The notes: generated by a model not told the origin, from the sequence alone. Positions 1 to 29,709 are shown, numbered from the stretch's first letter. The stretch is 64,000 nucleotides of DNA from an uncultured archaeon (GCA_964512235.1 CAZEGD010000002.1:40768-104767); one strand, 5' to 3'. Program-made: numbers and translations.

Positions 1-1124
1 CTTGGGAGTTTGCATACGTCATGGATACTGTAAAGGAAGAGCGTGCACGCGGTCTGACCATAGACATTATGCACAGGCCATTTGAAACTAAGAATTGGTA
101 TTTCACTGTTATTGATGCTCCTGGACACAGAGATTTCGTTAAAAATATGATTACTGGCGCGAGCCAGGCTGATGCTGCTATATTTGTTGTCTCAGCCAAG
201 CAAGGCGAAGGTATACAAGAGCAGACTAAGGAACATGCTTGGCTTTTGAAGGTGCTTGGTGTAAATCAAATTGTTGTTGTACTGAATAAGATGGATACTA
301 CAAAATACGATGAAAAGAGATTTAACGAAGTTAAGGAAGATGTCATCAAATTGCTCAAGATGATAGGCTACAAAGTCGATGAGATTCCATTCATACCGAT
401 ATCTGGTTATGTAGGTGACAATGTAGTTAAGAAATCTGAAAATATGGCATGGTACAAAGGGCCGACCATTATGGAAGTGCTTGACCAGTACATAAAAGAG
501 CCTGAGAAGCCTATAGACAAACCTTTGAGGTTGCCAATCCAGGGTTCCTATTCGATTACTGGAGTCGGTACAGTACCAGTGGGTCGTGTAGAGACTGGTG
601 TGCTCAAGGTGAATGATAAACTTATTTTCGAGCCTTCGGGTACGCAAGGTGAAGTGAAGAGCATTGAAGTCCATCACCAGCAAATTCAAGAAGCTAAGCC
701 AGGTGATAATGTGGGCTTCAACGTACGCGGCATAAGTAAGAATGATGTCAGGAGAGGTGATGTTGCCGGTCATGTGGACAATCCACCTACGGTTGTAAAG
801 GAGTTCACAGCGCAGATAGTCATATTACAGCATCCAACTGTGGTTACAGCAGGCTATACTCCAGTATTCCACTGCCACACATCATCAATAGCATGCACAA
901 TAAAGGAAATAACTGCAAAAATAGATCCAAAGAGTGGACAAGTTACGCAGGAAAAGCCAGATTTTATAAAGACTGGTGATGTTGCACGTGTAGTGGTCGT
1001 GCCAACTAAGCCGATGGTAATAGAGAAGCAGTCAGACTTCCCACAACTTGCAAGATTTGCTATTCGTGACATGGGAATGACAGTAGCGGCTGGCGTTTGC
1101 TTGGACTTAGTGAAAGCAAAATAA
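1..1124 (+). CDS. tuf: Translation elongation factor 1-alpha, 5'-truncated by the window edge (frame continues upstream: WEFAYVMD...)
   Basis: TIDI...[29 protein letters not shown] motifs; beta-barrel domains II and III; ORF open to position 1. Confidence 0.95.
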
Positions 1125-6039: not shown

Positions 6040-6468
6040 ATGATTTTGTCTGTTAAACAGCGTAAAATTAAGATGCTAGAACGCCTTCTAAAGGGGGATT
6101 TGGAGAAAATAGCAGAAATAGAGCATATTCCAATTGAAGGAACGAAAGAAGATATTCTAAATAAATTAGCCAGTCGCTTGAATCTTCAAAGGACGAGAGA
6201 TTATGTAAAAAAGCTTGTTCTACGTCAAGTATTCGATGTATTCAGCCATGAATTGGTACCAAAGCATAAGGTGCTCTCAGAAAAGGAGAAAGAAATGCTT
6301 CTAGATCAATACAAGATTACAATAGGACAACTACCGAGGATAGCTATTAGAGACTCTGCTGTGCTCTCCATAGATGCAAAACCAGGCGATATCATAGAAA
6401 TAAGTAGGAAAAGCCCTATAGCAGGTGAAATAAAGTATTATAGGGTAGTTATGAGACCAAAGAAGTAA
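6040..6468 (+). CDS. rpoH: DNA-directed RNA polymerase subunit H (Rpb5 homolog) with a ~60-aa N-terminal extension
   Basis: C-terminal 75 aa ([28 protein letters not shown]...[23 protein letters not shown]) match archaeal RpoH; the N-terminal 60-65 aa are extra. Confidence 0.85.
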
Positions 6469-6514
6469 TTTGAGCCTTTTTCTATCAAGTGATTCAATCG
6501 ATTGAATCGCTTTC

Positions 6515-7249
6515 CTATGGACTTTTGTACCTTACCCAACCCTTTCCGTCCCGTCGGAATCTCTCTATCTCGTTGGTCCTCTTCATAGTGTTCGATAGAA
6601 GTCCGCGCAACGCAGAGGTAGTAATGCTTAGTCGTGTAGCCATATCCTTGTAGCTCAGTTCGCCTACAGATCTGACGACTGAAACTAGCTCCTTCATCTT
6701 TGTAGAGAGTGGTATTTGGCTTCTCATTGTCTCTATTTCCCTTAGAATATCTGTCTTTATTGGTTCAGGAGCTTTGACTGCAACCCTCTGGAGCCTATCG
6801 AGAACCGATTGAATCGATTTGAATCGGTTCTGAACGCTTACATCATGTCTTTCCACTGCTTTTCTGATATTTTCAAGATTCTCAATCAATTCTGGTGTCT
6901 GATCGTCAAATTCGGTCTTAAACCAATCTTTTGTTACCATCTGTCTTTCTATACGTGAAAGAGAGCGCTCAACCTCCTTGATACTCTTTCCGGTGTAGCC
7001 AGCAGCGAGTCCAAGTTGAAAAGAATCCTTTTCGAGAGCCGTTACTTCTGGTTTCGGGGTGGGAGCTATTCGATTCTTGGTAGTTCCCCGTCCCGTTACA
7101 ATTAACGCCTCCCGTTCAGGAAGTTCTCTATACTTCTGCCTAGCGATTGAATCGATTGAATCGCTTTCAATCGATGATTCAATCGATTGAATCGATTGAA
7201 TCGCTTTTTTCCGTCCCATTAGCCGCTTCAATCGATTAAAAATACCCAT
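6515..7249 (-). CDS. Hypothetical protein with N-terminal IQSIESSIDS repeats and a C-terminal winged helix
   Basis: Coding sequence contains GATTGAATCG-type DNA repeats; C-terminal H-T-H plus wing (SYKDMATRLSITTSALRGLL...GKGWVRYK). Confidence 0.6.
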   Translation of the reverse strand: MGIFNRLKRLMGRKKAIQSIQSIESSIESDSIDSIARQKYRELPEREALIVTGRGTTKNRIAPTPKPEVTALEKDSFQLGLAAGYTGKSIKEVERSLSRIERQMVTKDWFKTEFDDQTPELIENLENIRKAVERHDVSVQNRFKSIQSVLDRLQRVAVKAPEPIKTDILREIETMRSQIPLSTKMKELVSVVRSVGELSYKDMATRLSITTSALRGLLSNTMKRTNEIERFRRDGKGWVRYKSP

Positions 7250-7293
7250 AAAATCTATTAATTTTTTGGTTTTCCAGCTATTTATACGTTCGC

Positions 7294-7494
7294 CTCACAC
7301 GAACCCTCACGAAATTTCACATAGTCTTAAACTCACAGACTTCTGCGCAATACAATCCTCACAGGCTAATAAGCGGTCTTATGTTCACTTGCCTCTGCAA
7401 GCAGCATATCAGATCCACTGCTCTCTGAACTCTCACTTTCTCTCACTGTTTCCGGACACGCAAAGTGCACCACGCGTCATGGCTACCACTCACC
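7294..7494. repeat. Array of ~10 CTCAC / TTCAC pentamer iterons spaced 10-30 bp apart in non-coding DNA
   Basis: CTCAC at 7294, 7306, 7332, 7358, 7432, 7442, 7489; TTCAC or CCACT at 7316, 7384, 7414. Confidence 0.5.
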
Positions 7495-7580
7495 TCATCT
7501 TTTATATACTATAATATATAGTTATATCATATTATGTTATCACAATTATTTTATAACATATATTATACAGTATATCTTGT
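7495..7580. other. Extreme AT-rich tract (DUE-like) between the iteron array and the dispersed repeats
   Basis: ttttatatactataatatatagttatatcatattatgttatcacaattattttataacatatattatacag. Confidence 0.4.
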
Positions 7581-7586
7581 AGATGG

Positions 7587-7626
7587 TGTAAACTCTCACT
7601 TATGCACCATATGTGAACCGATTGGG
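7587..7626 (+). repeat. Dispersed repeat copy A (TGTAAACTCTCAC-N3-TGCACCA...GATTGG)
   Basis: Shares TGTAAACTCTCACnnnTGCnCCA..TG..GATTGG with copy C at 8333. Confidence 0.5.
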
Positions 7627-7810
7627 TAGCCCATTTGGGAGAGTCTCTTGTCGAAGAGAGCGTAAAGTATATATTGTATATATGCATAATGCACAATATT
7701 CAACATTAGAGAGTGGAAATAGACATTCTTTTATAAGAGTATGTTAAATTATATTATAGAACATATGCTTTTATACGAAAATCGTAGCAAAGCTGTGTAA
7801 AATGTTGGGG

Positions 7811-7860
7811 AACTCTCACAAGTGCACAGTCTATACATAGCACTGGCGCACTTACCTCTT
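7811..7860 (+). repeat. Dispersed repeat copy B (AACTCTCACaagTGCACAG...TGGCGCACTTaCCTCTT)
   Basis: ~50-bp element alignable with copy D; lies at the 3' end of minus-strand gene 7852..8034. Confidence 0.5.
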
Positions 7861-8034
7861 TAAAGCTTTTCTTATCTTCTTTAGACATGCTGGACAGACG
7901 ACTAAAAAGCGGTATTTGCGGTAATCTGATCTTAATCTGTAAGATTTGCCCTTTTTGAGGCAGAAATCACATGTCCCACGTGGATGACCTGCTTCAATCC
8001 TTATCTTTTTAACTCCTGAGACTCCTATGGCCAT
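7852..8034 (-). CDS. Lys/Arg-rich zinc-ribbon protein (60 aa)
   Basis: CDFCLKK...VVCPACLKKIRKALKR; flanked on both sides by repeat copies B and D. Confidence 0.5.
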   Translation of the reverse strand: MAIGVSGVKKIRIEAGHPRGTCDFCLKKGKSYRLRSDYRKYRFLVVCPACLKKIRKALKR

Positions 8035-8060
8035 ATTATTATATTGTTTTCCAGGTGTTT

Positions 8061-8110
8061 AAGTCTCACATCTGCTCAGTCCCTAGGCAGAAGTGGCGCA
8101 CTTCTCTTAG
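8061..8110 (+). repeat. Dispersed repeat copy D (AAGTCTCACatcTGCTCAG...TGGCGCACTTCTCTTAG)
   Basis: Aligns with copy B over ~50 bp; ~25 bp upstream of the start codon of 7852..8034. Confidence 0.5.
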
Positions 8111-8268
8111 TAAAATGGGTTGAAAAATTGTCTCAAAATGAGACAAAAATTATACAACTTTCCATAAATCAATAGTTTTACTCTTTCTAGAAGTCTTTGG
8201 TCAATGGGCTTGATTATTCGTTCTCTCTCTTATGTATAAAAAGTATAAAATAGAGTATATTTCCTCGT

Positions 8269-8934
8269 ATGGTAGGGTCATTCTCTATATATAGAAAGTA
8301 TAAATATATGGAAAAGAATAGAATAATTAGAAAATATGTAAACTCTCACAAATGCGCCAGTGATTGGATGAAGTTAAGAGATGGGATTGAGCTTGCTGAA
8401 AGGTACGGGGCATCAGAAAAAAGGATTGAATTTGTAAGTAATTTATTCACACAGGCTGATATTAGGTACGAATATTTTTCTGAGAGTGCTATAGTTGCCG
8501 GTTTTATAAATAATAATGCCATAGTTGTGAAGGAAGAGATTGCACCTGACTTGGAAAGTATTAAACTTGATAAAAGTGAGTTGAAATTTGTCAGACAACC
8601 ACAAAAAGACGATAAAATCGCATCAATTAGGTTACTTAAAACTCTAGGATTTGAATTCGCTGGCACAGAAATAAGATACAATGGTGGAACAGTAGATGTT
8701 TTGGGTTGTGGTAAAGGCAAAATTATTGCTGTAGAGTGCGGTCCTTGTAGAATTAACAAGGCTGTAGACTATTTAGAGAAGGAAAATACTGAATTGTGGC
8801 TGATTCCTGTTGACTTCTGGCAGAATAAGAAGTTTTTCATAGTTTCACGTGGTCCAAACTGGAAGGATTTTCATGATTTTCACAAAAAATACCAAATTAA
8901 AGTGCTAAAAACTGGAAAGGTGGTGGGAATATGA
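8269..8934 (+). CDS. Hypothetical protein, possibly restriction-endonuclease-like (PD-(D/E)xK) fold; true start may be internal (ATG 8308 or 8367)
   Basis: TVDVLGCGKGKIIAVECG resembles a D...E.K nuclease core; repeat copy C lies inside the 5' end. Confidence 0.35.
   Translation: MVGSFSIYRKYKYMEKNRIIRKYVNSHKCASDWMKLRDGIELAERYGASEKRIEFVSNLFTQADIRYEYFSESAIVAGFINNNAIVVKEEIAPDLESIKLDKSELKFVRQPQKDDKIASIRLLKTLGFEFAGTEIRYNGGTVDVLGCGKGKIIAVECGPCRINKAVDYLEKENTELWLIPVDFWQNKKFFIVSRGPNWKDFHDFHKKYQIKVLKTGKVVGI
8333..8364 (+). repeat. Dispersed repeat copy C (TGTAAACTCTCACaaaTGCGCCAGTGATTGG)
   Basis: See copy A. Confidence 0.5.
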
Positions 8935-9278
8935 AAACGACATTGCACTTACTGGTGGGTAATCATCCAAAGACGGGTAGACTGAAACAAAGAATAACCA
9001 AAATCATCAGGATTTTGAAAGAGAATAAGGGTAAAATCGAGGCAAGCGAGTTGGAAAAGAAGTTAGGGATATCACGAACAGACGATCCAAGTCTCTTCTA
9101 CAAGCCGTTAAAGTCCATGAGGGACTGGGATTTGGTACAGTCGCACCGTACAGTGGAGTTTGATAGCAAAGGTAAGAAGCATTTTAAGACTACATACGAG
9201 CTAACACCAAGCTTCTTTTACCGCTACATAGAAAAAACGCTGTTGGAAAAGGTCAGAACGGAGTTAGAAATGATCTAA
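8931..9278 (+). CDS. Winged-helix DNA-binding protein
   Basis: RILKENKGKIEASELEKKLGISRT ... wing; start overlaps the previous gene by 4 nt. Confidence 0.5.
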   Translation: MKTTLHLLVGNHPKTGRLKQRITKIIRILKENKGKIEASELEKKLGISRTDDPSLFYKPLKSMRDWDLVQSHRTVEFDSKGKKHFKTTYELTPSFFYRYIEKTLLEKVRTELEMI

Positions 9279-9414
9279 TACATCTTACGAAAAGATGAAG
9301 TCCTCTACATGCGTTTTCAGCCATACAAACTATAAAAGGAGTGTAAACTTAAGTTTCTTCTGTATACAAGTTCTTCACTCTCACATCTAGTCAGGATTCG
9401 TACCAATCATTTAA

Positions 9415-9708
9415 TCAAGGAGAACTGACGAGTTGTGGAGTTTTCTCAAGTTTTTTCTTGTAGTTTTCCACACGTTTCTTTAACTCTGGGTCCTTTTCAA
9501 TCAATATGTTATAAAGGATTACAGCATCTTCTGAAGTCTTGAAAAGTTGGCCTTCGACTTCATTTTTAACATTTAGATAAAGATCCACTGCCTCGTCAAA
9601 TGGCAATACCGCGACCAGTTCTGGAGCGCCAGGGTTCTTCTTTCTGGCATACACATGCAACTTATCGCCAACGAACTTAGTCCAAACATCTAGGTTTGGG
9701 TTCTCCAT
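9415..9708 (-). CDS. Hypothetical protein (97 aa)
   Basis: ORF only; repeat copy E (9342..9395) lies just 3' of it. Confidence 0.4.
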   Translation of the reverse strand: MENPNLDVWTKFVGDKLHVYARKKNPGAPELVAVLPFDEAVDLYLNVKNEVEGQLFKTSEDAVILYNILIEKDPELKKRVENYKKKLEKTPQLVSSP

Positions 9709-9768
9709 AAAAACTTCTGCTGATTATGTTAATTTAAGCATTGTAGTGTTGCTTAACCAGTATCGGGT

Positions 9769-10065
9769 TTAGAGATTTTCTCTATGGAGCGATTCTCTGA
9801 CTTTTTCCAAATTTTTTTCAGCGTCTTCGTATGGATTTCTTTTCATAATCTTTACAGCTTCTTTCCCTTTCTGAGTTATGTGCAAATCGCCGTCTGTACC
9901 TATCTCAACATAAGGACCTAAAAGAAGTTCATCTAAAGCCTTTTTCACCCTAGTAGGATTATTCGGAAATTCGTTGTATATCTTATCTCTTGGCATAGAT
10001 TCTTTCTCACATATTAAACGTAGGATATATCCGATGGGGCTATTTGTCATTTTTCCACCAAACAA
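9769..10065 (-). CDS. Winged-helix transcription regulator-like protein
   Basis: PIGYILRLICEKESMPRDKIYNEF...LGPYVEI..DGDLHITQKG pattern. Confidence 0.45.
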   Translation of the reverse strand: MFGGKMTNSPIGYILRLICEKESMPRDKIYNEFPNNPTRVKKALDELLLGPYVEIGTDGDLHITQKGKEAVKIMKRNPYEDAEKNLEKVRESLHRENL

Positions 10066-10115
10066 ATTATAAAAGCGAGAGATTTAAATCTCACCCTACA
10101 TATACTTCAGAACTC

Positions 10116-10607
10116 TCACTTTTCCATCAGAAGCCCGTCTACATAGTCTATTTGGTCTTCCGGTTTTTCGTGTGATCTGACTAATTCTTCATAAATTTGT
10201 CTGACCCGATGCACATTGTCGCTGTCTATCCAGTATATACGTCCTGCGCGCTCTTTTTCAACTTCTCCGTATCCAGAAGTGATAATACCCCGATCTCCTA
10301 AAACATCTAATGATGACGATATTTCATTTCTTTCAATTAAACCCTCGAAATAGTCTACAAGTCTTGTAAATGTAGCGGGTATTTTAGTCATGTTGTATTT
10401 GTAAATCTGTACGGCTATCTTCAGATAATTATCTAGACTTTCCATAGCATTTGGGTCTGCTTTTTTGAATTCTTTGTTCTGATTCTTTAATGGGAGTGGA
10501 ACTTCAGGTATGTCTGACCCAATTAAGAAAAGTTCTTTTGGTTTCGGAAGCAAAATATCACCTAGAATAAATATAGAGTTTAAACTTTTATATTCGGTAT
10601 ACGCCAC
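10116..10607 (-). CDS. Hypothetical protein (163 aa)
   Basis: ORF; its stop codon is embedded in repeat copy F (10111..10130). Confidence 0.45.
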   Translation of the reverse strand: MAYTEYKSLNSIFILGDILLPKPKELFLIGSDIPEVPLPLKNQNKEFKKADPNAMESLDNYLKIAVQIYKYNMTKIPATFTRLVDYFEGLIERNEISSSLDVLGDRGIITSGYGEVEKERAGRIYWIDSDNVHRVRQIYEELVRSHEKPEDQIDYVDGLLMEK

Positions 10608-10623
10608 ATTGGCTTATTCTAGT

Positions 10624-10920
10624 CTATCCTGCATACACTTCTTTACTCTCACTCTTCACTTCTTTTGGCAGGAAGAAAAGGCCACCATGCAATAGAATTG
10701 CATAAAGGATTATCCTCATGAAGTCTGGAGATTCCATCTTTTTTATCTTTTTTAGGTAGGTTGATACTGTATTCCTGGATATGCCAAGCATTTCCGCTAT
10801 TTCTAGGTTGTTGTAGCCTCTTGCGTTTAATATTATTATCTCTTTTAGCATTATTGGTTTGAAGCCGTATCTCTTTGCTAGTGTGTTGAATAGCTGGTTT
10901 AGGTATCTTTCTATCTTCAT
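10624..10920 (-). CDS. HTH_10 (bacterio-opsin-activator-type) helix-turn-helix protein with a C-terminal TM segment
   Basis: GYNNLEIAEMLGISRNTVSTYLKKI HTH; hydrophobic segment IILYAILLHGGLFFL. Confidence 0.5.
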   Translation of the reverse strand: MKIERYLNQLFNTLAKRYGFKPIMLKEIIILNARGYNNLEIAEMLGISRNTVSTYLKKIKKMESPDFMRIILYAILLHGGLFFLPKEVKSESKEVYAG

Positions 10921-10964
10921 GTTAAATATTGTGCATTTTGCATATATTTAAACTATTTACATAA

Positions 10965-11177
10965 TTAAAAAATAAATACATGAAGGAAAAGAAAAATAAA
11001 GATCAGTCCTATCAAAATAAGTTCAATCAATACTAGTTTCGTTAATTCTTGTATTTCCATAGTAATCTGGGGAATACCAAAAATTGCTCCGATGATTAAG
11101 AAAAATACAGTTAAGGCTCCGAAGAAAATCGCAATTTTCTGTTCTGTAGTATATTTCTCTTTTTTATTAATTTTCAT
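10965..11177 (-). CDS. Small membrane protein (70 aa)
   Basis: Two hydrophobic helices; start overlaps the upstream gene. Confidence 0.4.
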   Translation of the reverse strand: MKINKKEKYTTEQKIAIFFGALTVFFLIIGAIFGIPQITMEIQELTKLVLIELILIGLIFIFLFLHVFIF

Positions 11178-11380
11178 CGACTCAACCTCGATATTATGCC
11201 AATAATTATCGAAATTATCATCGCTACTATTACGAAGAAGAATAGTAATGAATAACCTGGTGCCAGTTCTGTTAATATTGGACCTAAAGCATAGGTAATA
11301 ATGATAATTATAAAAATTGTAAGTAGAGCTTCAAAAACAAATGAAATTATATTTTGTCCTTTATTCTTCATATTTACCAT
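11174..11380 (-). CDS. Small membrane protein (68 aa)
   Basis: Two hydrophobic helices; 4-nt overlap with the downstream gene. Confidence 0.4.
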   Translation of the reverse strand: MVNMKNKGQNIISFVFEALLTIFIIIIITYALGPILTELAPGYSLLFFFVIVAMIISIIIGIISRLSR

Positions 11381-11464
11381 CTTACTTCACAAAAATAAAT
11401 AGTTTGATAATTCCTCAATCTTTATTAATCTTCTGATTAAATTCTGTAATTAGATAGATTTTTC

Positions 11465-12433
11465 TTAACTAGAAAATGTTACATCAAAAACTTTCACTTC
11501 TATTAGAGGATTTGCAGCTGCAGCATATTCAAGATAAGTATCTTTCTTACCAACAACAATTATACCTCTAACTCCTTTACCCTCTTTCTCGGCCATATGT
11601 TTTTTTATCCAACCCATATATCTCGATATCTGGTCTATTATTGAAGAACCAGCTTTTGATTTTTTCAATTCAACAACAACATAATCTGCATTACTACATA
11701 ATAAATCGAGTCTTCCAACATCGGTAACTTTCTGCCTAGCGACTACTTTAAGATGTGGGTCTAACTTATGGATGTTTTGCTCTATGATGGTCTCTAAATT
11801 CCTTTCAAGGATTTCTGTGTAGCCTATCTGCCTACTAACTTTTTCTTTTATTATTTCTTTTTTATCGTCTTCTTTGATATCCGACTTTATCTCAACCCAC
11901 CTTCCCTCTTCGAGGTAATTCAAGAATTCGTCTATCGACCCAAATTTTTCTACCAAAGGCGTTAATCTATCTCCGCTTATTTGCATAAAGCCTTGTGGAG
12001 TATAGTTAGGTGCATAACCTACAACTTTATTGAAATCTGAAACAGGAACCGATAGTTCTCTTAGATTATCAAGAAGGTACATATATTCCCAAGTTTGTCC
12101 AGAGGAGTCCGTACTCCATAAAAATTTAGCTAATTCAAGATTATGTATTTTGTGTACGACGGTAGCAATATATTCGTAATTCCCCTTTCTATAAATCAGA
12201 ATTTTATCATTGACTTCTAGGTTGCGCCAATTTCGTATGTTTCCACTTCCAGGTGTGGCTCCCCATGCCCTTATTTTTCTATCGCGGAAATAATCTTCCA
12301 CATCTTTCAAATCATTCTCTGATAGAAATTGTTTTATTTTATTATCTAAAGTGAATCCTTCTTCTATTGTATCAATATAATGTCTGTAAGCTTCGTCTCT
12401 ACTTGCTGTAAAAACGAATAATTTGGCGGTCAT
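11465..12433 (-). CDS. Nuclease with a NucS/EndoMS-type C-terminal RecB-like PD-(D/E)xK domain fused to a ~200-aa N-terminal PUA/EVE-like beta-barrel region
   Basis: C-terminal GRLDLLCSNADYVVVELKKSKAGSSIIDQISRYMGWIKKHM...GVRGIIVVG closely parallels the NucS C-terminal domain (IDLL..D..VVIELKRG.A...VGQLLRY.GWV...VRGILVA); the N-terminus is not NucS-like. Confidence 0.6.
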   Translation of the reverse strand: MTAKLFVFTASRDEAYRHYIDTIEEGFTLDNKIKQFLSENDLKDVEDYFRDRKIRAWGATPGSGNIRNWRNLEVNDKILIYRKGNYEYIATVVHKIHNLELAKFLWSTDSSGQTWEYMYLLDNLRELSVPVSDFNKVVGYAPNYTPQGFMQISGDRLTPLVEKFGSIDEFLNYLEEGRWVEIKSDIKEDDKKEIIKEKVSRQIGYTEILERNLETIIEQNIHKLDPHLKVVARQKVTDVGRLDLLCSNADYVVVELKKSKAGSSIIDQISRYMGWIKKHMAEKEGKGVRGIIVVGKKDTYLEYAAAANPLIEVKVFDVTFSS

Positions 12434-12458
12434 AGTGTACTACTAGTTAATTGAACTC

Positions 12459-12492
12459 TCAATTTTATATTATATTCCTTTTTCTAGAGCAC
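12459..12492 (-). promoter_or_regulatory. Promoter module copy 1 (TGCTCTAGAAAAAGGAATATAA + TATA box), ~35 nt upstream of the 11465..12433 start
   Basis: Minus-strand reading tgctctagaaaaaggaatataatataaaatt; near-identical to the copy at 14623..14652. Confidence 0.55.
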
Positions 12493-12507
12493 ACTTCCGG
12501 CGAGAAT

Positions 12508-13920
12508 CTAAACTCTATAACCTCTTCCTTCTTTTACCATCTTCGTCTTCGGTGACAATCTCCTAAACATGCCCGGATGCTCAGTATGCACAGGAAATAG
12601 CATCTTCGGCTTGATCCTCTCTATCAATTCTTTCAAATCCGTACCTGACATGTGCCCGCTACAGTGGCACTGCACCTGACGCAGATCAAAATGCTCCATC
12701 CAGTTCTTCATCCTCCCAGCAGACATCTCCATCTCCTCGTTGAACGGCTCGGAAAGAGAGTGTATATACAGGCTATCTTTCGGCTTCAAATCCACGAGCA
12801 TATTGAAGTACCAGAAATTCAGCACGGTCATGTAATCATTCGGCTTCTTCTGCATGTCTTCTGCTGTGATAATGTTCGGATAATCCATCCTTTCCCTTAT
12901 GTACTTGTCCGAATAGTCCTTGTCATCATAAGTGCCTGTCATCCGCTTCGGCTTAAGCAGATAGATACCTTTACCAGTACTATCTGGCACATTCAGCGTC
13001 TTATCCATATGATAGCGCTCCAGAAAGCACGCGTGCTTGAAGCTGATCACAAGCTTCTTCTCTACCTCTTGTGAAATGCGATAGAAAGTGCGGAATCGGT
13101 CCACATCCTTGAAATTGAAGTCTACTATGGACAGTCCCCTGTTCTTCAGTATCTCCCTCTTCGAGTCAGCATACACCTTCGCCTCTGATTCATCGGTCTT
13201 TTTGATGTCAATTCTGGTGCCTTCAGTTATCATCGCTATCGGTTTCACTTCCTCCGCTCTCTTCATAAAGTCCATAGTCATCTCCGAATGAGCACCATGC
13301 ATCCGCATATCTCCAGTATAAACGACTGGACCTTTGCTTGTATGTATGATGAAACCGTACGCGCCAGGGACGCTGTGATCCACATGAATGGGTTCTATCT
13401 CCAATGACCCAATCTTGAACTTCTTGCCTGTCCTAAATGTATGAAAGGTGCGCTCTTCCGGAGGCTTCCTGTAGTCCGTGCGAAATAAAGGCCGCTTCTT
13501 GAAGTTCAGCACTTCATTCTCTATGCCCCTCTGGCTCTGCTCTTCCACTGCCTGCAATATGCGATGGCATGTCTCTCCGCAATATATCGGAATGTCCTTG
13601 TGCAAAAACGAAATATAGTTTGCATGGTCTGCATGCGCATGCGAGAGAACGACTCCGTCTATCTCCGGATCTTTCGGCTTACGTCCATAATGTTTGAGCA
13701 AATCATCGCGGTAGACACCTTCTATGTCTGGTATCAGTCCCATTGCAAGGAAGTCGCCTATGCCGTTTGCTGTTCTTGGCTTCAGGAACTCTTCGAAGAA
13801 TTGTGCACGCTTGCCAAAGCTCATTCCGAAATCTAAAAATATTTTGGTACCTTTATCTTCCAACAGTATCTTGTTACCGCCAATTTCCTTCACTCCGCCA
13901 TAGAAAGTTAGTTTGACCAT
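12508..13920 (-). CDS. rnj: Archaeal RNase J-like beta-CASP ribonuclease (metallo-beta-lactamase fold)
   Basis: HAHADH motif plus downstream D/H beta-lactamase motifs and a beta-CASP C-terminus; start chosen at MVKLTFYGG, while the ORF-track start is 13959. Confidence 0.8.
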   Translation of the reverse strand: MVKLTFYGGVKEIGGNKILLEDKGTKIFLDFGMSFGKRAQFFEEFLKPRTANGIGDFLAMGLIPDIEGVYRDDLLKHYGRKPKDPEIDGVVLSHAHADHANYISFLHKDIPIYCGETCHRILQAVEEQSQRGIENEVLNFKKRPLFRTDYRKPPEERTFHTFRTGKKFKIGSLEIEPIHVDHSVPGAYGFIIHTSKGPVVYTGDMRMHGAHSEMTMDFMKRAEEVKPIAMITEGTRIDIKKTDESEAKVYADSKREILKNRGLSIVDFNFKDVDRFRTFYRISQEVEKKLVISFKHACFLERYHMDKTLNVPDSTGKGIYLLKPKRMTGTYDDKDYSDKYIRERMDYPNIITAEDMQKKPNDYMTVLNFWYFNMLVDLKPKDSLYIHSLSEPFNEEMEMSAGRMKNWMEHFDLRQVQCHCSGHMSGTDLKELIERIKPKMLFPVHTEHPGMFRRLSPKTKMVKEGRGYRV

Positions 13921-13965
13921 ATTCTCAATTGATAATTGGTATGAAACAGATAAAAGCAATATTTT

Positions 13966-14589
13966 TCAACCATAGAAAGGATATCTTCTATGCATCATCC
14001 GCCTTAGATCAGCGTCAAGCTTTGCACTTAACTCACGTTGCTGCTTAGAGATAGATTCCAAGCCGCTAACAACATATGGGCCCTCTAGAATTGGTGGTTC
14101 TATTGCCGAAAGTTGTTGTGGCAATCGTCTGGTCGCTTTTAGTGTAGATTGCATAACCTTTTTCATAATAGCATTCACAGCTTGATTGGGTGTTTTTAAT
14201 CCTTGCTCAACTTCCGATTTCATCTCCATCGTAAACTCCATAACTTCTTTCATGTCAACATTTCTGAACCCATAAGGGATTTCTGCCCCGCGTCTAAACC
14301 CTTTTCCCACAGCTTGTGGCATCCCGGGCACCCTTGGGATTCTAATCCTTGGTGCTGATCTTTCAAAGTCAAAATCTTTTATCTCAATTCCTATAACAGT
14401 TGGTTTTGTTTTGTAGATTGTATCTTTCTTCAGTAGCCATGCAGCATCTGGTGAGTAGATTAAAGCATCGTAGAATCCGCCTGGGCTTCTGTAAGTTATA
14501 GCGCCCCATTTAAAATCTCTACCATGCGGTTTTTTGTTATACTTCTTCAGTATATCATCCCAAATTTCTTCTCCCGGCAACACGCCCAT
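13966..14589 (-). CDS. Hypothetical protein (207 aa), probably co-transcribed with RNase J
   Basis: ORF preceded by promoter module copy 2; no recognisable domain. Confidence 0.5.
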   Translation of the reverse strand: MGVLPGEEIWDDILKKYNKKPHGRDFKWGAITYRSPGGFYDALIYSPDAAWLLKKDTIYKTKPTVIGIEIKDFDFERSAPRIRIPRVPGMPQAVGKGFRRGAEIPYGFRNVDMKEVMEFTMEMKSEVEQGLKTPNQAVNAIMKKVMQSTLKATRRLPQQLSAIEPPILEGPYVVSGLESISKQQRELSAKLDADLRRMMHRRYPFYG

Positions 14590-14622
14590 AATATCTACCC
14601 CTACAAGTAGTAGATTATCTCT

Positions 14623-14652
14623 TAATTTTTATATTCCTTTTTCTAGAGCAGA
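14623..14652 (-). promoter_or_regulatory. Promoter module copy 2 (TGCTCTAGAAAAAGGAATATAAAAATT), ~35 nt upstream of the 13966..14589 start
   Basis: 21-nt exact identity (tatattcctttttctagagca) with copy 1, plus flanking similarity. Confidence 0.55.
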
Positions 14653-14720
14653 CTCCCACCAAGACTCTGTCGTTCTTGAGTAAAGATAAGAATTTATTTC
14701 TAATCGTCCAAGCATAGTCT

Positions 14721-15110
14721 ATGGGGAGTAAAACGCCTAGAGATATAATTATAGTATTAAAAAAAGGTAGGATGGTTCCTATACTTGAGAGCCTTGGTTG
14801 GGATCTTCTCCCACGTGGAGGTGAAAAACCAGACATCTTTGAAATAGCTGCTAGAAGAAATGCTCTAAAGGAAGTCTACAAAGAGTATGAACCTGTAATT
14901 GAAACCCTGCAGAAGTACGGACCCTCGACTCTGGAGCAGATTAGCGGATATACCGGAAGACCATATGGAGAAGATAAAGGATATTTAGAACTTTTGCTCA
15001 TGATTGATGTGGTGAAAAAAGAAGATGGAATATACAGATTAGCTGCAGATGTGAAAGAAGTATTATCGCTTTTTGATGTTGATGGTAGCTCCGTTATGAT
15101 ACTTCCCTAA
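14721..15110 (+). CDS. Hypothetical winged-helix protein (129 aa)
   Basis: LEQISGYTGRPYGEDKGYLELLLMIDVVKKEDGIYRL helix-wing pattern. Confidence 0.45.
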   Translation: MGSKTPRDIIIVLKKGRMVPILESLGWDLLPRGGEKPDIFEIAARRNALKEVYKEYEPVIETLQKYGPSTLEQISGYTGRPYGEDKGYLELLLMIDVVKKEDGIYRLAADVKEVLSLFDVDGSSVMILP

Positions 15111-15185
15111 AAACTAGTGTCCTAGATAATTAAAAAACTTAAATCCTTAACGAACTACCTAAAAATAGGTTTGATGTAAAGAAAC

Positions 15186-16166
15186 TTATGGCAGATCCGG
15201 CAGCTTCTCGTCAATCTTCTCGAACCCCTCCTTGAATATGTCTATTATCCTCTCCTTCTCTTTCCTGAGCTTCCTGTTGTGCGACTCGAGGCAGATGCCT
15301 GCTAACATCAGTAGCCCACCACCCATGATTGTCTCAGGCATTATCTGCTCGCCTATCACCACTGACGCTAAGACTATAGACAATATCGGTGTTATCATTA
15401 TCGCTATCAATGACCCTGTCTCCGCTTCTATTCGCTTTAGTGCCAGATTGTAAAACAGGTGAGCAAGCGCTGTGGAGACAATTCCTAGAATGACTAGATA
15501 TACTATGCTGCTTGAGATTTCACCCAATCCATAGATGAATGGGAAGGGGGACAGTAGTATCGAAGCGAAGAGAAAGAACCAAACCACGGCTCCGATGCCG
15601 TGTGTCTTGCCCTCTTTCCTCATATTGACTATTAACAACCCGTAAAAGACTGCACCCGTCAGAGCTAACATATTTCCCAAGTTGCTTTCTCCAAACTGGA
15701 ATGGGTTTATTATCAACAACCCAGCAGCTGCAATGATTAGAGTTATTATCTTTGTCAAAGTGATTTTTTCTTTTAATAAGAAATATCCAAAGACTAAAAC
15801 AAAAAATGGGTAACTATAATTCAGCAAGACTGCGTTCTGTATCGATGTGAATATGTTTGCGGCTGTATATAGTGACAGCGATATAGCGTAAATGGAACCG
15901 ATAAGGAAAAAGTCTTTTGCATCCTTCTTTGTAATTTTATACCACTTCTTGTCAAGAAATGGCACTACCGCCAGCAGAAAGAGGAGGCCGAAGAAGATTC
16001 TAAAAAAGTTTAGAGTCATTATTGGAATTGTGTCTCCAATCAGTTTGACGAGCACACCTATAGTACCCAGGCAAAGAGCAGCCAATACCATGTAAGTGTA
16101 GTTCAAACGCCTCATAGATAGAATATTTGATTGGTAGAATAAAACTCTCCAAACAAGTCTTTTCAT
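15186..16166 (-). CDS. EamA/DMT-family transporter (10 TM); true start possibly the internal Met at 16115
   Basis: Two EamA-like repeats of 5 TM each; hydropathy profile. Confidence 0.75.
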   Translation of the reverse strand: MKRLVWRVLFYQSNILSMRRLNYTYMVLAALCLGTIGVLVKLIGDTIPIMTLNFFRIFFGLLFLLAVVPFLDKKWYKITKKDAKDFFLIGSIYAISLSLYTAANIFTSIQNAVLLNYSYPFFVLVFGYFLLKEKITLTKIITLIIAAAGLLIINPFQFGESNLGNMLALTGAVFYGLLIVNMRKEGKTHGIGAVVWFFLFASILLSPFPFIYGLGEISSSIVYLVILGIVSTALAHLFYNLALKRIEAETGSLIAIMITPILSIVLASVVIGEQIMPETIMGGGLLMLAGICLESHNRKLRKEKERIIDIFKEGFEKIDEKLPDLP

Positions 16167-16177
16167 TTAAATTTTAT

Positions 16178-16396
16178 TCACACTTTGCCTTTTTCAAAGC
16201 CATTATTTTTACGATATGCGCGCTCCAAGAATGCAGTATATGGAGTTCTATCATTAAAATTCAAAACTAACCGACAATAAGTTTGATGAGCAAAATAATG
16301 AAGACTAGCATGACCTTCCAAGAAACCTTTCATCTTGTCATACGAAACAGATGGAAGGGGTCTTAATGGTTTTAACTCTGTATTAAGTATTTTCAT
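16178..16396 (-). CDS. Hypothetical protein (72 aa), last gene of a six-gene operon
   Basis: ORF, 11-nt gap to the EamA gene. Confidence 0.4.
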   Translation of the reverse strand: MKILNTELKPLRPLPSVSYDKMKGFLEGHASLHYFAHQTYCRLVLNFNDRTPYTAFLERAYRKNNGFEKGKV

Positions 16397-16459
16397 AAAA
16401 TAAACTTCTAAGAAAGAGATTTATGCTTATCGTCTTTTTACATCTTCCGTCAAGAATCT

Positions 16460-16765
16460 TTATTCTAACTTCAGAGATTTTATCAGTTCCAATCTCTCTG
16501 CAGGAATCGCGTTTCTATCCATATATATATTTGGAGGGGCAAGCAACATACCCTTACCAGCCTTAGCGAGTCTCTCTTCACAGTCCCCACCCATTTCCAC
16601 CCAGACTCTCGAAGAGAGTAAATAGACCGCTTTGACTATCGCTGGTATGTCTTTTCCAAGACTATTTCTGTAGAATATCGTATCTCCAGGATTCACGTAC
16701 GCTAAGTCTTCCTCTCCCAGAGGGATTAGATCCATTTTACTCTTTTCCATTCTAACACACTCCAT
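16460..16765 (-). CDS. Hypothetical protein (101 aa)
   Basis: ORF in the operon. Confidence 0.45.
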   Translation of the reverse strand: MECVRMEKSKMDLIPLGEEDLAYVNPGDTIFYRNSLGKDIPAIVKAVYLLSSRVWVEMGGDCEERLAKAGKGMLLAPPNIYMDRNAIPAERLELIKSLKLE

Positions 16766-16780
16766 ATAAATAGAGTTAAT

Positions 16781-17176
16781 TTATGCAAATTCTTTTGGCA
16801 ATGTCTCAGACGGGCAGTAAAATGTTTCCCTTACTTTCGAATCCACAGTCACTACTGGTTTGATTATTTCCCTTTTAGCTTTCAGCCCGCCATCGACGAG
16901 TTTCCAAGCATTGTATAAGGTTTTATAGACTTGACCGGTCTTTTCAACTACACCTACTTCAATGAGAACATTGTAAGTTTTTAATGCCTCTTCTAGATCG
17001 AACAGCTTCTTTGCCCACTTTGGAAGTTTGTCATAAATCTGTGTTATTGTCCCAGGTCCATAACTGCAAAGCATTTCATCGTAAAAAATAGCAGGCTCTT
17101 CTAAATGTATTATTTTACCATCCTTACCTTCCAATCTCAATACAATATCTTTATTCCATTTTTCCATTATCTTCAC
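16781..17176 (-). CDS. Hypothetical protein (131 aa)
   Basis: ORF; 4-nt overlap with the upstream gene. Confidence 0.5.
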   Translation of the reverse strand: MKIMEKWNKDIVLRLEGKDGKIIHLEEPAIFYDEMLCSYGPGTITQIYDKLPKWAKKLFDLEEALKTYNVLIEVGVVEKTGQVYKTLYNAWKLVDGGLKAKREIIKPVVTVDSKVRETFYCPSETLPKEFA

Positions 17177-17499
17177 CTTCCCAATTTAGAGCATAGGTTA
17201 TCATAGAGCTGTTCTATACCCTTTGGTGTCATTGGATTATCATAAGTACCCTGAGACTTAATTGTTGTGCTGTTATTCGTGTTAGAGCGTCTGTATGTAC
17301 TACAAGCTCCTACGACACCCTCAGCTTCTCCAAATTTGTCTACAAGGTCGACCGCTTCAACAAATAGATCATTAGTGATGTTAAATCTCGTCATGTCTAT
17401 TTGAAACAATTTACTAGCTAAATATATCTTAAGTTCTTCATGACCAGGAATACCTTTTGTAATCGCGGATTCTTGCATTGTGTTTTTGCTTACAGCCAT
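17173..17499 (-). CDS. Hypothetical protein (108 aa)
   Basis: ORF in the operon. Confidence 0.5.
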   Translation of the reverse strand: MAVSKNTMQESAITKGIPGHEELKIYLASKLFQIDMTRFNITNDLFVEAVDLVDKFGEAEGVVGACSTYRRSNTNNSTTIKSQGTYDNPMTPKGIEQLYDNLCSKLGR

Positions 17500-17541
17500 A
17501 CTAAAGACCTTGAAAGTTAAGGATTTAAGCCTGTCGACTTG

Positions 17542-17937
17542 CTATACAAGATATCTAGTACAGGTAGGCTCTCTAAAGTAAAAGACGTCTATGCACTTTT
17601 TGTCGCCGTTCCCTATCCCATCCTGCGTCTTCAGCAGCTTCAAAGTCCACTCGTACATTGTGCTCAACGTAGGGATCAAATAGCTTAGAAAAAATGTCTT
17701 CCCTTCTGAGGGGTTTATATATTTCTGGAGTTCAGCGTCAATTATAGAAATGCGCTCTTTGAGCCCGTCCAGATTCTTCCTGTCCTTCTCAAGCATGCTT
17801 ATTGCATCTTTTATTGTCACGTAGGAAAAGGGTATTGATACTATGTTGTCAATGGCGTTTTCGCAACATGTATGGCATTCTTTCACATCTGCGGCGATTC
17901 TTTCAAGTTCTTCTTTCTCTGAAGGCATGGTTATCAA
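17542..17937 (-). CDS. Hypothetical protein (131 aa) with a CHTCC motif
   Basis: ORF in the operon. Confidence 0.5.
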   Translation of the reverse strand: MITMPSEKEELERIAADVKECHTCCENAIDNIVSIPFSYVTIKDAISMLEKDRKNLDGLKERISIIDAELQKYINPSEGKTFFLSYLIPTLSTMYEWTLKLLKTQDGIGNGDKKCIDVFYFREPTCTRYLV

Positions 17938-18012
17938 ATATTGATGATGTTAGAGAAATTTAAGTTTGTCATTCTCTTCCTTGGTTGATATTTTCTTTCA
18001 GAATTTTCTTTT

Positions 18013-18438
18013 CTAAAGTGAATCTTTGAATATTCCTTCGTGAAAGACCAAACCCGAAGAAAGTGCAATCATTGGATTGCCTTCACTTCTTTTGACGATT
18101 GTACCTTTGCCCACTCTTCCGTAACCGGTCTTTTCCATAAGTGCCTGGTACGCGCTTCTATAGTCGGTCTCACCATTATTATCTGAAGGAACATCTTTAA
18201 CAAGATAATAAGACATTATTTTATCTTCCGTGGGAGTTATTGGTATGTAGCATACTGCTACTGTACTACCCGCAACGTAGACTAAGTGTTTATCTATAGG
18301 ATCGTCAGGCCACCAATCCCTAACCAATACTTCTTTAGAAATTTTTACACCGGAAAGTTCCTCTTTTCTAAATCCTTTGATAAATTCTAAGAATTGCACG
18401 GGTTCTATTGTAATTTCTTCGATTTCCATACTAAACAA
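18013..18438 (-). CDS. Hypothetical protein (141 aa), first gene of the operon
   Basis: ORF; likely start at MEIEEITIEP. Confidence 0.5.
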   Translation of the reverse strand: MFSMEIEEITIEPVQFLEFIKGFRKEELSGVKISKEVLVRDWWPDDPIDKHLVYVAGSTVAVCYIPITPTEDKIMSYYLVKDVPSDNNGETDYRSAYQALMEKTGYGRVGKGTIVKRSEGNPMIALSSGLVFHEGIFKDSL

Positions 18439-18572
18439 AAGAAATAATAGAAATTTATCCTTTACTGTCTGATGATTATCGGTTGCTTCTAAATCTACAA
18501 TTGGTGGGATTTGAAAGATTTAGGTCTGCCTTGAACATTGGAATTTTTAATATCCAATACTCAGAATTATTT

Positions 18573-19061
18573 AATATGGATATGAAACCTAGGAAGATTG
18601 CAAAGCTTGTTGTATTCATATTGTTGTGCGAATTTGCAGGCATAGTCGGCTCCTTTTTTACAACTCCTTCTATAGGGACATGGTATGCTACTCTGCAAAA
18701 GCCGTGGTTCACGCCTCCTAACTGGCTGTTCGGTCCTGTCTGGATTACGCTTTATTTCCTCATGGGAGTATCTCTCTATTTTGTCTGGGAGAAAGGACTG
18801 AAAAAGAAAAATGTGAAGATGTCTTTGTATATATTCGGGATGCAGCTGGCGTTGAACGCTCTCTGGTCTATTCTGTTCTTCGGGTTGCAATCTCCTCTAT
18901 ACGGATTTGTAGAAATAGTCGCCCTTTGGATTGTAATAGCAGTCATCATTTTCAAGTTCTACAAAGTTTCAAAGAAAGCCGCAATTCTGCTCATGCCATA
19001 CATAGCATGGGTAACGATTGCTACTGCTTTGAATTACTATGTGCTGATACTCAATCCATAA
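18573..19061 (+). CDS. tspO: TspO/MBR family tryptophan-rich sensory protein
   Basis: 5 TM; W-rich motifs YATLQKPWFTPPNWLFGPVW and LNALWSILFF; start taken at MDMKPRK, while the ORF-track start is 18483. Confidence 0.8.
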   Translation, partial: NMDMKPRKIAKLVVFILLCEFAGIVGSFFTTPSIGTWYATLQKPWFTPPNWLFGPVWITLYFLMGVSLYFVWEKGLKKKNVKMSLYIFGMQLALNALWSILFFGLQSPLYGFVEIVALWIVIAVIIFKFYKVSKKAAILLMPYIAWVTIATALNYYVLILNP

Positions 19062-19067
19062 TGCTGT

Positions 19068-19508
19068 CTATATAACCAAATCTGAGGACTCTTTCTTCAC
19101 AAATGGTAGATAATCTTCTGTTTCTAAGAAATGTTCGTCAAAATCTGCATTGTTTGATTCTTCCTCGCAAGTGTAGACTAAGAAGTATATCTTATCTCTC
19201 TCGTCAAAGGCAATAAGATAGCCCGAAAGTCCTATGCCATCGCTTTCGCCGGTAGAATGTGTAGAATTTTCGAATCCTAAAAACTCAAAAAATGAGGGTG
19301 TATAAGAATAGCTTAGGTTTTTGAGCATGAGGCAAAACCTGTAATAGAGATTCAATCTGTTTTTACTAACGACAAAGTTTGTATGGCCTACTTCGTATCC
19401 AATCATATTGGTTTGTCTAACGTCGTATTCATTTATAATCTTCTTGAAGAATTTTTTAGATTTCTTGATAAATTCATCGCTTGGATCTCCTGCTGTGCGT
19501 ATTTTCAT
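19068..19508 (-). CDS. Hypothetical protein (146 aa)
   Basis: ORF only. Confidence 0.45.
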   Translation of the reverse strand: MKIRTAGDPSDEFIKKSKKFFKKIINEYDVRQTNMIGYEVGHTNFVVSKNRLNLYYRFCLMLKNLSYSYTPSFFEFLGFENSTHSTGESDGIGLSGYLIAFDERDKIYFLVYTCEEESNNADFDEHFLETEDYLPFVKKESSDLVI

Positions 19509-19616
19509 AGTACATTCAATGGCCTTTAAAAATTTAAGTCTAATTCAAAGGTTGAAGATTTAAATTGAGTGGGTTGTGATTTAAATTCCTAGCAGACTTA
19601 ATTATTTGGGGGTAGC

Positions 19617-20915: not shown

Positions 20916-20957
20916 AGAATTAGAAATGGGAGCGTTAACTGCTCATCATTCAATTTC

Positions 20958-21389
20958 TTACCTTCTGCGCCTTCTTTTCGGCCGTTTGGCTTTTTTCATC
21001 GGCTTCTTCATTTTCGCTTTTCCCATCAAAGGCAGTTTGAAAGCTGCAAGTACTATGTAACCGACTATGGACCAAATGAAGACGTCTGCTACGAAGTTCT
21101 GCCATATCACGGACTTGACTGGGAATTGGACTACGGCTTGCCTGAGCCAAGGCAGTACATATCCCCAATAGACTGCACCGACCCACGGATGACTGATGAA
21201 TTGGACATCGGGCAATTCACCCACTATGTTCGAATTCACCCACATGCCGCTTACAGTCGTCACCACCAGCCCTATCAGGATCGAGAAGGCTATTCTTCTG
21301 TCAATCAACTTTGATATCATAGAAATAATATCGGAATTTCGGCTTAAAAGCGAGTAATCATTATACGAACTACTTATTTTCTTGCGCAC
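20958..21389 (-). CDS. Membrane protein with an Arg/Lys-rich C-terminal tail
   Basis: 3 TM; tail KKPMKKAKRPKRRRRR. Confidence 0.45.
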   Translation of the reverse strand: MRKKISSSYNDYSLLSRNSDIISMISKLIDRRIAFSILIGLVVTTVSGMWVNSNIVGELPDVQFISHPWVGAVYWGYVLPWLRQAVVQFPVKSVIWQNFVADVFIWSIVGYIVLAAFKLPLMGKAKMKKPMKKAKRPKRRRRR

Positions 21390-21400
21390 AATAATTATCT

Positions 21401-29582: not shown

Positions 29583-29709
29583 GCGGGGGTCGCCTAGTCT
29601 GGTCAATGGCGCGAGGCTTAAGTTTGACTACTTAAGATCTGATAAAATATGATGCAATAAGAAACCTCGTGGCTTAGTGCCTTCGTGGGTTCAAATCCCA
29701 CTCCCCGCA
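29583..29709 (+). tRNA. tRNA-Leu (anticodon UAA) with a ~41-nt intron after position 37 (approx. 29623..29663)
   Basis: Acceptor stem GCGGGGG/TCCCCGC; long variable arm GGCttagtGCC; anticodon loop CTTAAG|intron|A; intron contains ACTTAAG complementary to the loop (bulge-helix-bulge context). Confidence 0.85.

Follow-up and report, generated by a model that had tools for sequence, protein, structure and literature searches.

The 64,000-nucleotide stretch of DNA analysed here (GCA_964512235.1, CAZEGD010000002.1:40768-104767; hereafter the window) comes from the Aenigmatarchaeota, uncultured and genome-reduced archaea of the DPANN group. Beside the gene of a 244-residue winged-helix protein it contains an array of short direct repeats with the core CTCAC. 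This array is a real, functional and non-coding element, and CTCAC appears to be the invariant core of a 12-bp, asymmetric, putative protein-recognition box, AAcTCTCACTTT. Our tentative interpretation, held with a little less than even confidence and drawn from comparison of sequences, is that the array consists of phased putative binding sites for the adjacent winged-helix protein, which would thereby regulate its own gene and neighbouring or divergent promoters. The cis-element and its candidate protein partner are both universal in the phylum and confined to it. In the literature searched, we found no description of such an element, a direct-repeat protein-binding array coupled to the gene of its binding protein, nor any of the replication origins, segregation systems or transcription regulators of the Aenigmatarchaeota. 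The architecture of the array is measurable, with a 12-bp box, a spacing of 11n+4 and a fixed promoter geometry.

A single-orientation array of boxes beside an AT-rich tract

The CTCAC cores start at 7294, 7306, 7332, 7358, 7432, 7442 and 7489 (n = 7), exclusively on the plus strand, and TTCAC variants on the same strand start at 7316 and 7384 (Table 1). Outside 7200-10700, the window holds 47 copies of CTCAC on both strands, or 0.00039 per strand-bp. The number expected in the 200 bp of the array is 0.08, and the Poisson probability of at least seven is ~3e-12. The pentamer is not common in the window, with 64 copies on both strands against ~98 in dinucleotide shuffles. Restriction-site-like avoidance of CTCAC was considered and set aside, the under-representation being only mild (47 observed, 64 expected, z = -2.2 under a third-order Markov model).

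The array is followed directly by an AT tract whose segment 7502-7581, at 13.8% GC, ties for the lowest-GC 80-mer in the 64 kb. An earlier note on this DNA had described a one-orientation array of CTCAC and TTCAC pentamers at 7294..7494 and an extreme AT tract of ~85 bp immediately behind it, and both descriptions hold.

Table 1. Coordinates of the array, the adjoining gene and the associated elements in the window
Feature	Position	Strand	Remarks
Phylum-restricted 244-aa protein gene	6515..7249	-	N-terminal amphipathic basic helix, disordered linker, long helices, C-terminal winged helix
Core promoter of the winged-helix gene	7250..7293	-	TATA-like ATAAATAG, ~7275-7285, ~26-36 nt upstream of ATG
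Box array	7294..7493	+	7 CTCAC cores and TTCAC variants; family consensus AAcTCTCACTTT
AAGTGCACCA box, second motif type inside the array	7463..7472	+	AA(A/G)TGCRCCA equivalent in arrays of L004-L008
AT tract, ~14% GC	7500..7586		Two copies of AT-rich element, ATATACTATAATATATAGTTATATC and ACATATATTATACAGTATATC
Composite box TGTAAACTCTCAC-TTA-TGCACCA, then TTGGGTAGCCCATT palindrome	7587..7609	+	Conserved in L005, L006
29-nt promoter-like element	7678..7706	+	Inverted copy 10919-10947
Unit 1: AACTCTCAC-AAG-TGCACAGTC-N12-TGGCGCACTT	7811..7853	+	Three conserved boxes, fixed-length variable spacers
Zinc-ribbon open reading frame (CxxC...CxxC), 60 aa	7852..8034	-	Flanked by units 1 and 2; tblastn 60-85% identity in L004, L006, L022
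Unit 2: AAGTCTCAC-ATC-TGCTCAGTC-N12-TGGCGCACTT	8061..8103	+	
Composite box TGTAAACTCTCAC-AAA-TGCGCCA	8337..8359	+	~30 nt inside, or just past, ATG 8308, where the first island gene probably has its leaderless start
Outlying boxes in array orientation: ACTCTCAC 9377-9384; CTCAC 10090; AACTCTCACTTTT 10111-10123; ACTCTCACT 10645-10653	9377..10653	+	

Conservation across the Aenigmatarchaeota

The comparison set comprised seven metagenome loci, retrieved by exact protein look-up, and 38 GTDB species loci, at 34-73% protein identity. In this comparison with related genomes, which the earlier note had proposed, the array proved to be kept in ~45 Aenigmatarchaeota loci, chromosomal and syntenic. Synteny is conserved around the winged-helix gene, whose chromosomal contigs reach 880 kb, and a gene-poor stretch of ~330-1080 bp lies upstream of it in every metagenome locus for which gene calls exist. 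Nearly all of the ~45 loci carry a one-orientation array in this upstream region (GTGAG on the gene strand, CTCAC on the other), with zero or one reverse-orientation copy per region and four in one locus.

The box consensus AACTCTCACTTT, derived from k-mer statistics, occurs in 38-40 of 41 loci, with a 50-115 fold enrichment relative to their remaining sequence. Its concentration at the gene is apparent when 40 loci are pooled: the 500 bp beside the gene core hold 62 array-oriented copies of CTCTCAC, and the next 500 bp hold eight. Beyond the first 1 kb there are 13 copies in the island-side tail to -4 kb and two in all remaining sequence within +-10 kb, and the other orientation stays at background level. 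A 60-mer of 2-17% GC lies beside or within the array in every locus tested.

A second motif system, TGCTCAGTC-N12-TGGCGCA, with a spacer of fixed length and variable sequence, accompanies the array in ~26 loci, in one or two copies. Every copy is on the array strand and lies 270-1400 nt from the gene core; the rest of the loci has none. In many loci its second copy overlaps the leaderless start of a conserved gene for a 115-residue protein with the HTH_11 helix-turn-helix (HTH) domain, where TGCGCCA stands at ~-31, the spacer at the TATA position and GACTGAGCA at -13 to -4. In the most distant lineages, CTCAC stands 3 nt before an AT-rich element, ATATATATTTT-N-TAGTATATA, which recurs two to four times, 60-80 nt upstream of small genes. 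The AT tract of the window comprises two copies of this element, which in distant relatives, with CTCAC in front, recurs several times upstream and there precedes several small genes.

A 783-kb contig holds a single exact unit match, at the array locus. A strict unit pattern found 18 matches in metagenomes, comprising 16 chance matches in high-GC coding DNA and two true loci, and is too strict for mapping the distribution. A viral-contig scan with CTCTCACT-N14-32-CTCTCACT was discarded as unspecific; the protein is encoded by none of the 120 matches listed, and the only ones with several copies are tandem repeats within coding sequence. Identical short contigs come from two sequencing runs and one JGI metagenome.

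The array is built into the promoter of the winged-helix gene

In the window, the first box lies 8 nt beyond the TATA-like element of the winged-helix gene, so that the gene strand reads GTGAG-8 nt-ATAAATAG. Across 32 loci, the distances from box to ATG fall into two classes. In one, the TATA-like element stands between boxes located 16-20 and 43-47 nt before the ATG; in the other, to which the window belongs, it is abutted by the first box, 43-57 nt before the ATG. These fixed positions indicate that the array is built into the core promoter of the gene. The putative binding sites thus overlap the core promoter of a regulator that itself has a DNA-binding domain of the transcription-factor type.

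The spacing of the boxes is also ordered. Distances between consecutive boxes peak at 26-27 bp (27 cases), 37 bp (15 cases), 47-48 bp and 58-59 bp, approximately 11n+4. A Rayleigh test gives a periodicity of 11-11.5 bp for the two promoter-proximal pairs, and distal pairs share this periodicity (p ~2e-4 to 2e-5, for related sequences that are not independent). Such periodicity argues for a constraint on the face of the DNA.

A lineage-specific protein with a C-terminal winged helix

The gene at 6515-7249 does encode a winged-helix protein, as had been noted earlier from the sequence. The winged helix is C-terminal and of the MarR/ArsR type, a fold class of transcription regulators. By fold, the DNA-binding domain comes nearest to MarR/ArsR and not to Orc1, Cdt1 or Rep. 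The protein matches no Rep family, and no Rep initiator of the WH1-WH2 type adjoins the array.

A collection of 5.8 billion proteins contains 144 relatives of this protein, and all named sources of the family are Aenigmatarchaeota. Remote homologues of known function were sought by a profile search of 1.84 billion representatives, which returned 118 representative clusters, all from the family itself. The family alignment begins with a conserved N-terminus, MG(I/L)F(D/N)RLKRLF, and continues through a variable, low-complexity part containing (R)F(E/K)A(L/I)QS-like repeats and a conserved helical core to the winged helix. Because this N-terminus is conserved in homologues, the start codon can be placed at 7249.

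The N-terminal dodecamer is amphipathic and cationic, with a median hydrophobic moment of 0.62 against 0.375 in shuffles and a net charge of +1 to +5. The moment exceeds the shuffle mean in 27 of 28 sequences but individually reaches p<0.05 in just 14%, and the helix is predicted with low confidence (predicted local distance difference test, pLDDT, ~50). Residues 1-12 (window 7219-7249) resemble the membrane-targeting sequences of MinD and FtsA and the N-terminus of PspA/Vipp1.

The 9-bp repeats GATTGAATC at 6480-6514, 6802-6826 and 7134-7210 were considered as true iterons and rejected. They encode the (I/L)(Q/E)S-type peptide repeats carried by the linker of the protein and are therefore a coding-level feature. 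The copy just past the stop codon would encode KAIQSIES, which is the real C-terminal tail of the relative P0002, so this tail has probably been lost recently here through a stop codon.

A putative regulatory array of the adjacent protein

These features could be accommodated by an autoregulatory arrangement in which five to ten same-direction boxes fill the interval that separates the core promoter of the winged-helix gene from an AT-rich block with outward-facing promoter elements. The adjacent protein would bind the boxes through its MarR/ArsR-like winged helix; the 115-residue HTH_11 neighbour is a less likely alternative binder. The long helices may let bound copies pair or oligomerise, giving a phased nucleoprotein array. 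Because the proximal boxes abut or bracket the TATA box, their occupancy would set the transcription of the protein's own gene. The array, together with the second box type (TGCKCAG / TGGCGCA), may also control divergent promoters and small regulator genes, including those of the zinc ribbon, the HTH_11 protein and the first island genes. Both the identity of the binding protein and an output in transcriptional control, as opposed to replication or segregation, are what we infer from this arrangement. If correct, the locus would be the first candidate master regulator/operator system of the group and would control a variable gene island.

Autoregulated MarR/ArsR factors share with this locus the class of DNA-binding fold and sites that overlap their own core promoter. 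However, they use one or two palindromic operators, whereas here there are five to ten asymmetric direct boxes with helical phasing, and the protein has a long, disordered, repeat-bearing N-terminus.

Several observations weigh against the regulatory interpretation. Conserved adjacency is what assigns the boxes to this protein. Five to ten phased direct repeats with an extreme AT tract exceed ordinary archaeal autoregulation and have the textbook look of an iteron origin or a plasmid centromere. The absolute orientation of the boxes is constant and does not follow the direction of neighbouring genes, which is unexpected for a purely promoter-relative element, and the distal boxes, taken as bare pentamers, show no enrichment near the starts of open reading frames (ORFs). 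Given the single orientation, the copy number and the AT tract, origin and centromere readings retain some probability.

Replication and segregation as possible alternative functions

It is unlikely, though still worth serious consideration, that the locus is the Aenigmatarchaeota chromosomal origin, or a segregation centromere or membrane anchor, specified without Orc1/Cdc6 and origin recognition boxes (ORBs). In such a case, a lineage-specific coiled-coil winged-helix protein might coat the phased AACTCTCACTTT boxes beside an unwinding tract and recruit partners through its N-terminal peptide motifs and amphipathic helix. The locus would then be an archaeal chromosome-maintenance site that dispenses with Orc1 and ORBs.

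With regard to replication, the earlier note had taken the array and AT tract as the architecture of an origin. The iteron-like direct repeats in one orientation, the tract and the winged-helix gene all stand, and they are conserved; the step from there to a replication origin is unsupported, and origin-specific tests are negative. An origin of this kind, chromosomal or captured from an extrachromosomal element, would use the boxes as iterons for a non-Orc1 winged-helix initiator and the AT tract as its unwinding element, by analogy with iteron plasmids or with Sulfolobus oriC3 and WhiP. We consider it improbable but not negligibly so. The array, the extreme AT tract and a DNA-binding gene lie together in an unusually long gene-poor region of a compact genome, throughout the phylum; the box is essentially limited to one locus, as ORBs are; and the surroundings are core informational genes (EF-1A, MetAP, RpoH, ribosomal proteins, PolB, FtsZ). 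As WhiP-dependent oriC3 shows, an archaeal origin can be specified by a winged-helix protein that lacks an AAA+ domain.

Plasmid origins with an autoregulated Rep (pPS10, R6K, F, RK2) share with the locus one-orientation direct repeats between an AT-rich stretch and the promoter of a winged-helix gene, and putative or known sites that overlap the promoter of the binding protein. Their iterons, however, are ~22 bp long and lie on one DNA face, whereas here 12-bp boxes are spaced at 26/37/48 bp, and the 26/37-bp spacing places neighbouring sites on opposite faces. The protein differs as well, having one winged helix and long helices, and the locus is chromosomal, syntenic and phylum-wide. In Sulfolobus oriC3, the gene of a non-AAA+ winged-helix protein likewise stands beside a repeat region, next to seemingly acquired DNA; here, no link in sequence or fold to Cdt1/WhiP was found, and origin activity is only putative.

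Origins of the Orc1/Cdc6 type with ORBs or mini-ORBs (Pyrococcus, Sulfolobus, Methanothermobacter; PMC1904270) resemble the locus in their long intergenic region, clustered short repeats that are rare elsewhere, AT-rich stretches and adjoining gene for a DNA-binding protein. In contrast to them, the locus has no TTCC..GGAA dyad or G-string, no inverted repeats across the AT tract and no orc1/cdc6 nearby. With reference ORB sequences from the same source, no ORB or mini-ORB was detected: TTCCANTGGAA with up to two mismatches gives 39 matches against 42 expected, none of them in 7250-8400. Neither the window nor the ~45 loci, within +-10 kb, contain an Orc1-like ORF of 150 aa or more with a Walker-A motif, and L004-L012 carry no Cdc6 or AAA Pfam annotation. 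The boxes on either side of the AT tract are all on the plus strand and do not face each other as inverted copies.

Strand composition lends no support to an origin either. In 22 loci, the third-codon-position GC skew, taken by gene strand, shows differences between the two sides that are of opposite sign for plus and minus genes. The net replication skew term is ~ +0.004 with a sampling error of ~0.02, in a phylum for which a replication skew is itself not established, and gene orientation shows no divergence at the locus. Furthermore, the island beyond the array lacks Rep, primase, helicase and viral or plasmid hallmark genes, the AT element also occurs before small genes in distant relatives, the proximal boxes lie inside a core promoter, and the fold of the protein is nearest to MarR/ArsR. 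Taken together, these results weigh against both a canonical origin and an integrated plasmid replicon. An unconventional origin keeps a low probability, as winged-helix initiators that lack an AAA+ domain do exist (Sulfolobus WhiP).

A centromere-like or chromosome-anchoring site seems distinctly unlikely. There, the protein would coat the array while its N-terminal helix and peptide motifs tether the locus to a partner in division or segregation, or to the membrane. The multi-copy, phased, one-orientation array at a single locus would suit such a role, as would the family-wide amphipathic and cationic N-terminus, the disordered linker with its repeated motifs and the long helices. Plasmid R1 parC offers a precedent, with direct repeats around the promoter of its own binding protein. 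The likeness to parC/ParR and to centromeres of type II or Ib extends to the phasing of the repeats and to an array that both regulates the gene and builds a higher-order complex. Those systems, however, have a partner NTPase, a ribbon-helix-helix protein and a plasmid setting, whereas here the protein is a winged helix, the setting is chromosomal and no ParA, ParM, SegA or other partition NTPase gene lies alongside; the nearby P-loop ORFs are of the SRP54/FtsY type or other non-partition types. Further points against are the low-confidence helix and the small share of sequences that individually beat their shuffles, and membrane binding is itself putative.

RNA, recombination and coding alternatives

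It is very unlikely that the locus acts at the RNA level, as a long 5' leader or non-coding RNA with protein-binding CUCAC/GUGAG motifs and with the downstream units as small RNA genes. The strict single orientation would suit an RNA motif, the composite boxes at 7587, 7811 and 8061 each have a TATA-like element ~25 nt upstream, T-rich runs follow TGGCGCAYTT in many loci, and segment 7588-7735(+) folds better than shuffles (z = -2.6). Yet the helix of this segment is not kept in L005 or L006, its only two homologues and too few for a covariation test. The array itself folds no better than shuffles on either strand (z ~ +0.2) and has no Rfam match, either at the gathering threshold or even at E<=10. 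The AARTGC and GCAYTT halves of the units do not covary when instances are compared by eye. As the TATA box sits between the array and the ATG, the array lies outside the mRNA of the winged-helix gene. The 11-bp phasing of the spacing is a property of the DNA helix, and the three boxes of the 45-nt units, one and two helical turns apart, also form a DNA-face pattern.

Still less probable is that the repeats are recombination sites (dif, att or integron attC-like) for a tyrosine recombinase, with the 45-nt units bracketing small genes as cassettes. The units do flank one small gene, that of the zinc ribbon in the window and of HTH_11 in L007, L008 and L013; several loci continue into a variable island that encodes a tyrosine recombinase; and integrons have been reported in Aenigmatarchaeota (PMC9668308). 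Against this, the units lie only 270-1400 nt from the winged-helix gene, never at the far island border or beside the recombinase, and the CTCAC array would be left unexplained. Their form, CTCAC-N3-TGCTCAGTC-N12-TGGCGCAYTT, is neither an attC nor a dif arrangement. They lack the R''/R' cores of attC sites and are shorter than such sites. The 11-6-11 inverted repeat of the dif type (PMC2958812) is likewise missing. A search for att-like direct repeats linking 7250-8400 to the far island border found none, save the 29-nt promoter-like repeat at 10919. On inspection, C/D-box small RNA, tRNA-fragment and attC readings of the 45-nt units were all rejected, their defining boxes being missing.

That the array is coding sequence can practically be dismissed: the 82-aa plus-strand ORF 7266-7514, which exists with a TTG start and whose being a real gene would, by the terms of the earlier note, refute the origin reading, has no tblastn match in 47 related loci, unlike the neighbouring zinc-ribbon ORF and HTH_11 gene, gene callers are silent there in identical and related contigs, and neither of the box spacings 26 and 37 bp is divisible by three.

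Composite boxes and units right of the array

To the right of the AT tract, composite copies of the form CTCAC-N3-TGCNC stand on the plus strand at 7595, 7815, 8065 and 8345, some followed by TGGCGCAYTT. They are of two types, TGTAAACTCTCAC-N3-TGCRCCA at 7587 and 8337 and AACTCTCAC-N3-TGCWCAGTC-N12-TGGCGCACTT at 7811 and 8061. Copies of the box alone start at 9380, 10090, 10115 and 10648, every one on the plus strand. The composite motifs occur nowhere else in the window. The repeat family reported earlier is thus real and entirely on the plus strand, but it is confined to ~3.4 kb and cannot be called dispersed. Similarly, the array lies in non-coding DNA as described, while the supposed 600-bp non-coding region is not free of coding sequence up to 8400, as the conserved zinc-ribbon ORF lies at 7852-8034(-). 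This ORF is missing from the gene calls on related contigs.

The 29-nt element, ATATATGCA(T/A)AATGCACAATATT, is 93% identical between its inverted copies at 7678-7706 and 10919-10947. The copy at 10919 adjoins the ATG of a leaderless gene of the GerE HTH type (10624-10920(-), Pfam). The copy at 7678 has ATT instead of ATG and looks like a promoter and start that have decayed. A further non-coding block, 8210-8320, is nearly invariant and far better conserved than its surroundings. It contains two AAAGTATAAA motifs, ends in ATGGAAAAGAAT at the probable leaderless start 8308, is common to L006 and is inverted in L007 and L008.

Neighbouring genes and the variable island

The left flank reads, from left to right, EF-1A, Ogg, MetAP, DUF4382, a small winged-HTH gene and an RpoH-like gene, followed by the winged-helix gene. 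To the right of the gene-poor region lies a variable island of small ORFs, encoding HTH proteins, a NucS-like nuclease, a protein of the metallo-beta-lactamase (MBL) fold and an EamA transporter. Beyond it come a tyrosine recombinase gene (21401-22249) and the genes of Memo, GluRS and ribosomal proteins.

The content of the island (8300-21400), from the array to the conserved Memo-GluRS block, differs between relatives (L005-L011). L010 and L011 have a tyrosine recombinase gene in the interval from Memo to the winged-helix gene; in the window, the recombinase gene is the immediate neighbour of Memo. PADLOC and PHROGs searches of the island proteins found no defence system and no virus hallmark, and gave one PD-(D/E)xK nuclease candidate.

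The 115-residue HTH_11 protein, encoded at 8931-9278 (+), is better conserved than the winged-helix protein, with 60-79% identity (L006-L009, L013-L015, L021, L031, L045, L050). In most relatives its gene lies 650-1100 bp upstream of the winged-helix gene and is codirectional with it (for example L007, L008, L013-L015, L031, L050). In the window it is relocated or inverted and stands behind the first island gene.

The RpoH/Rpb5-C homologue at 6040-6468 (+) (Pfam E = 8e-27) has a 60-residue N-terminal extension with a weak SAP-like match. It lies away from any rpoB/rpoA operon and is convergent with the winged-helix gene, and proteins of the same length occupy the same place in L004 and L006.

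At 29583-29709 (+), Rfam reports a 127-nt tRNA (40 bits) that ARAGORN missed, probably an intron-containing archaeal tRNA gene. Genes for EF-1A-type GTPases occur at both ends of the window, at 21-1124 (+), which may be cut by the edge, and at 60450-61727 (-); the latter may encode a paralogue of the aRF3/HBS1 or SelB type.

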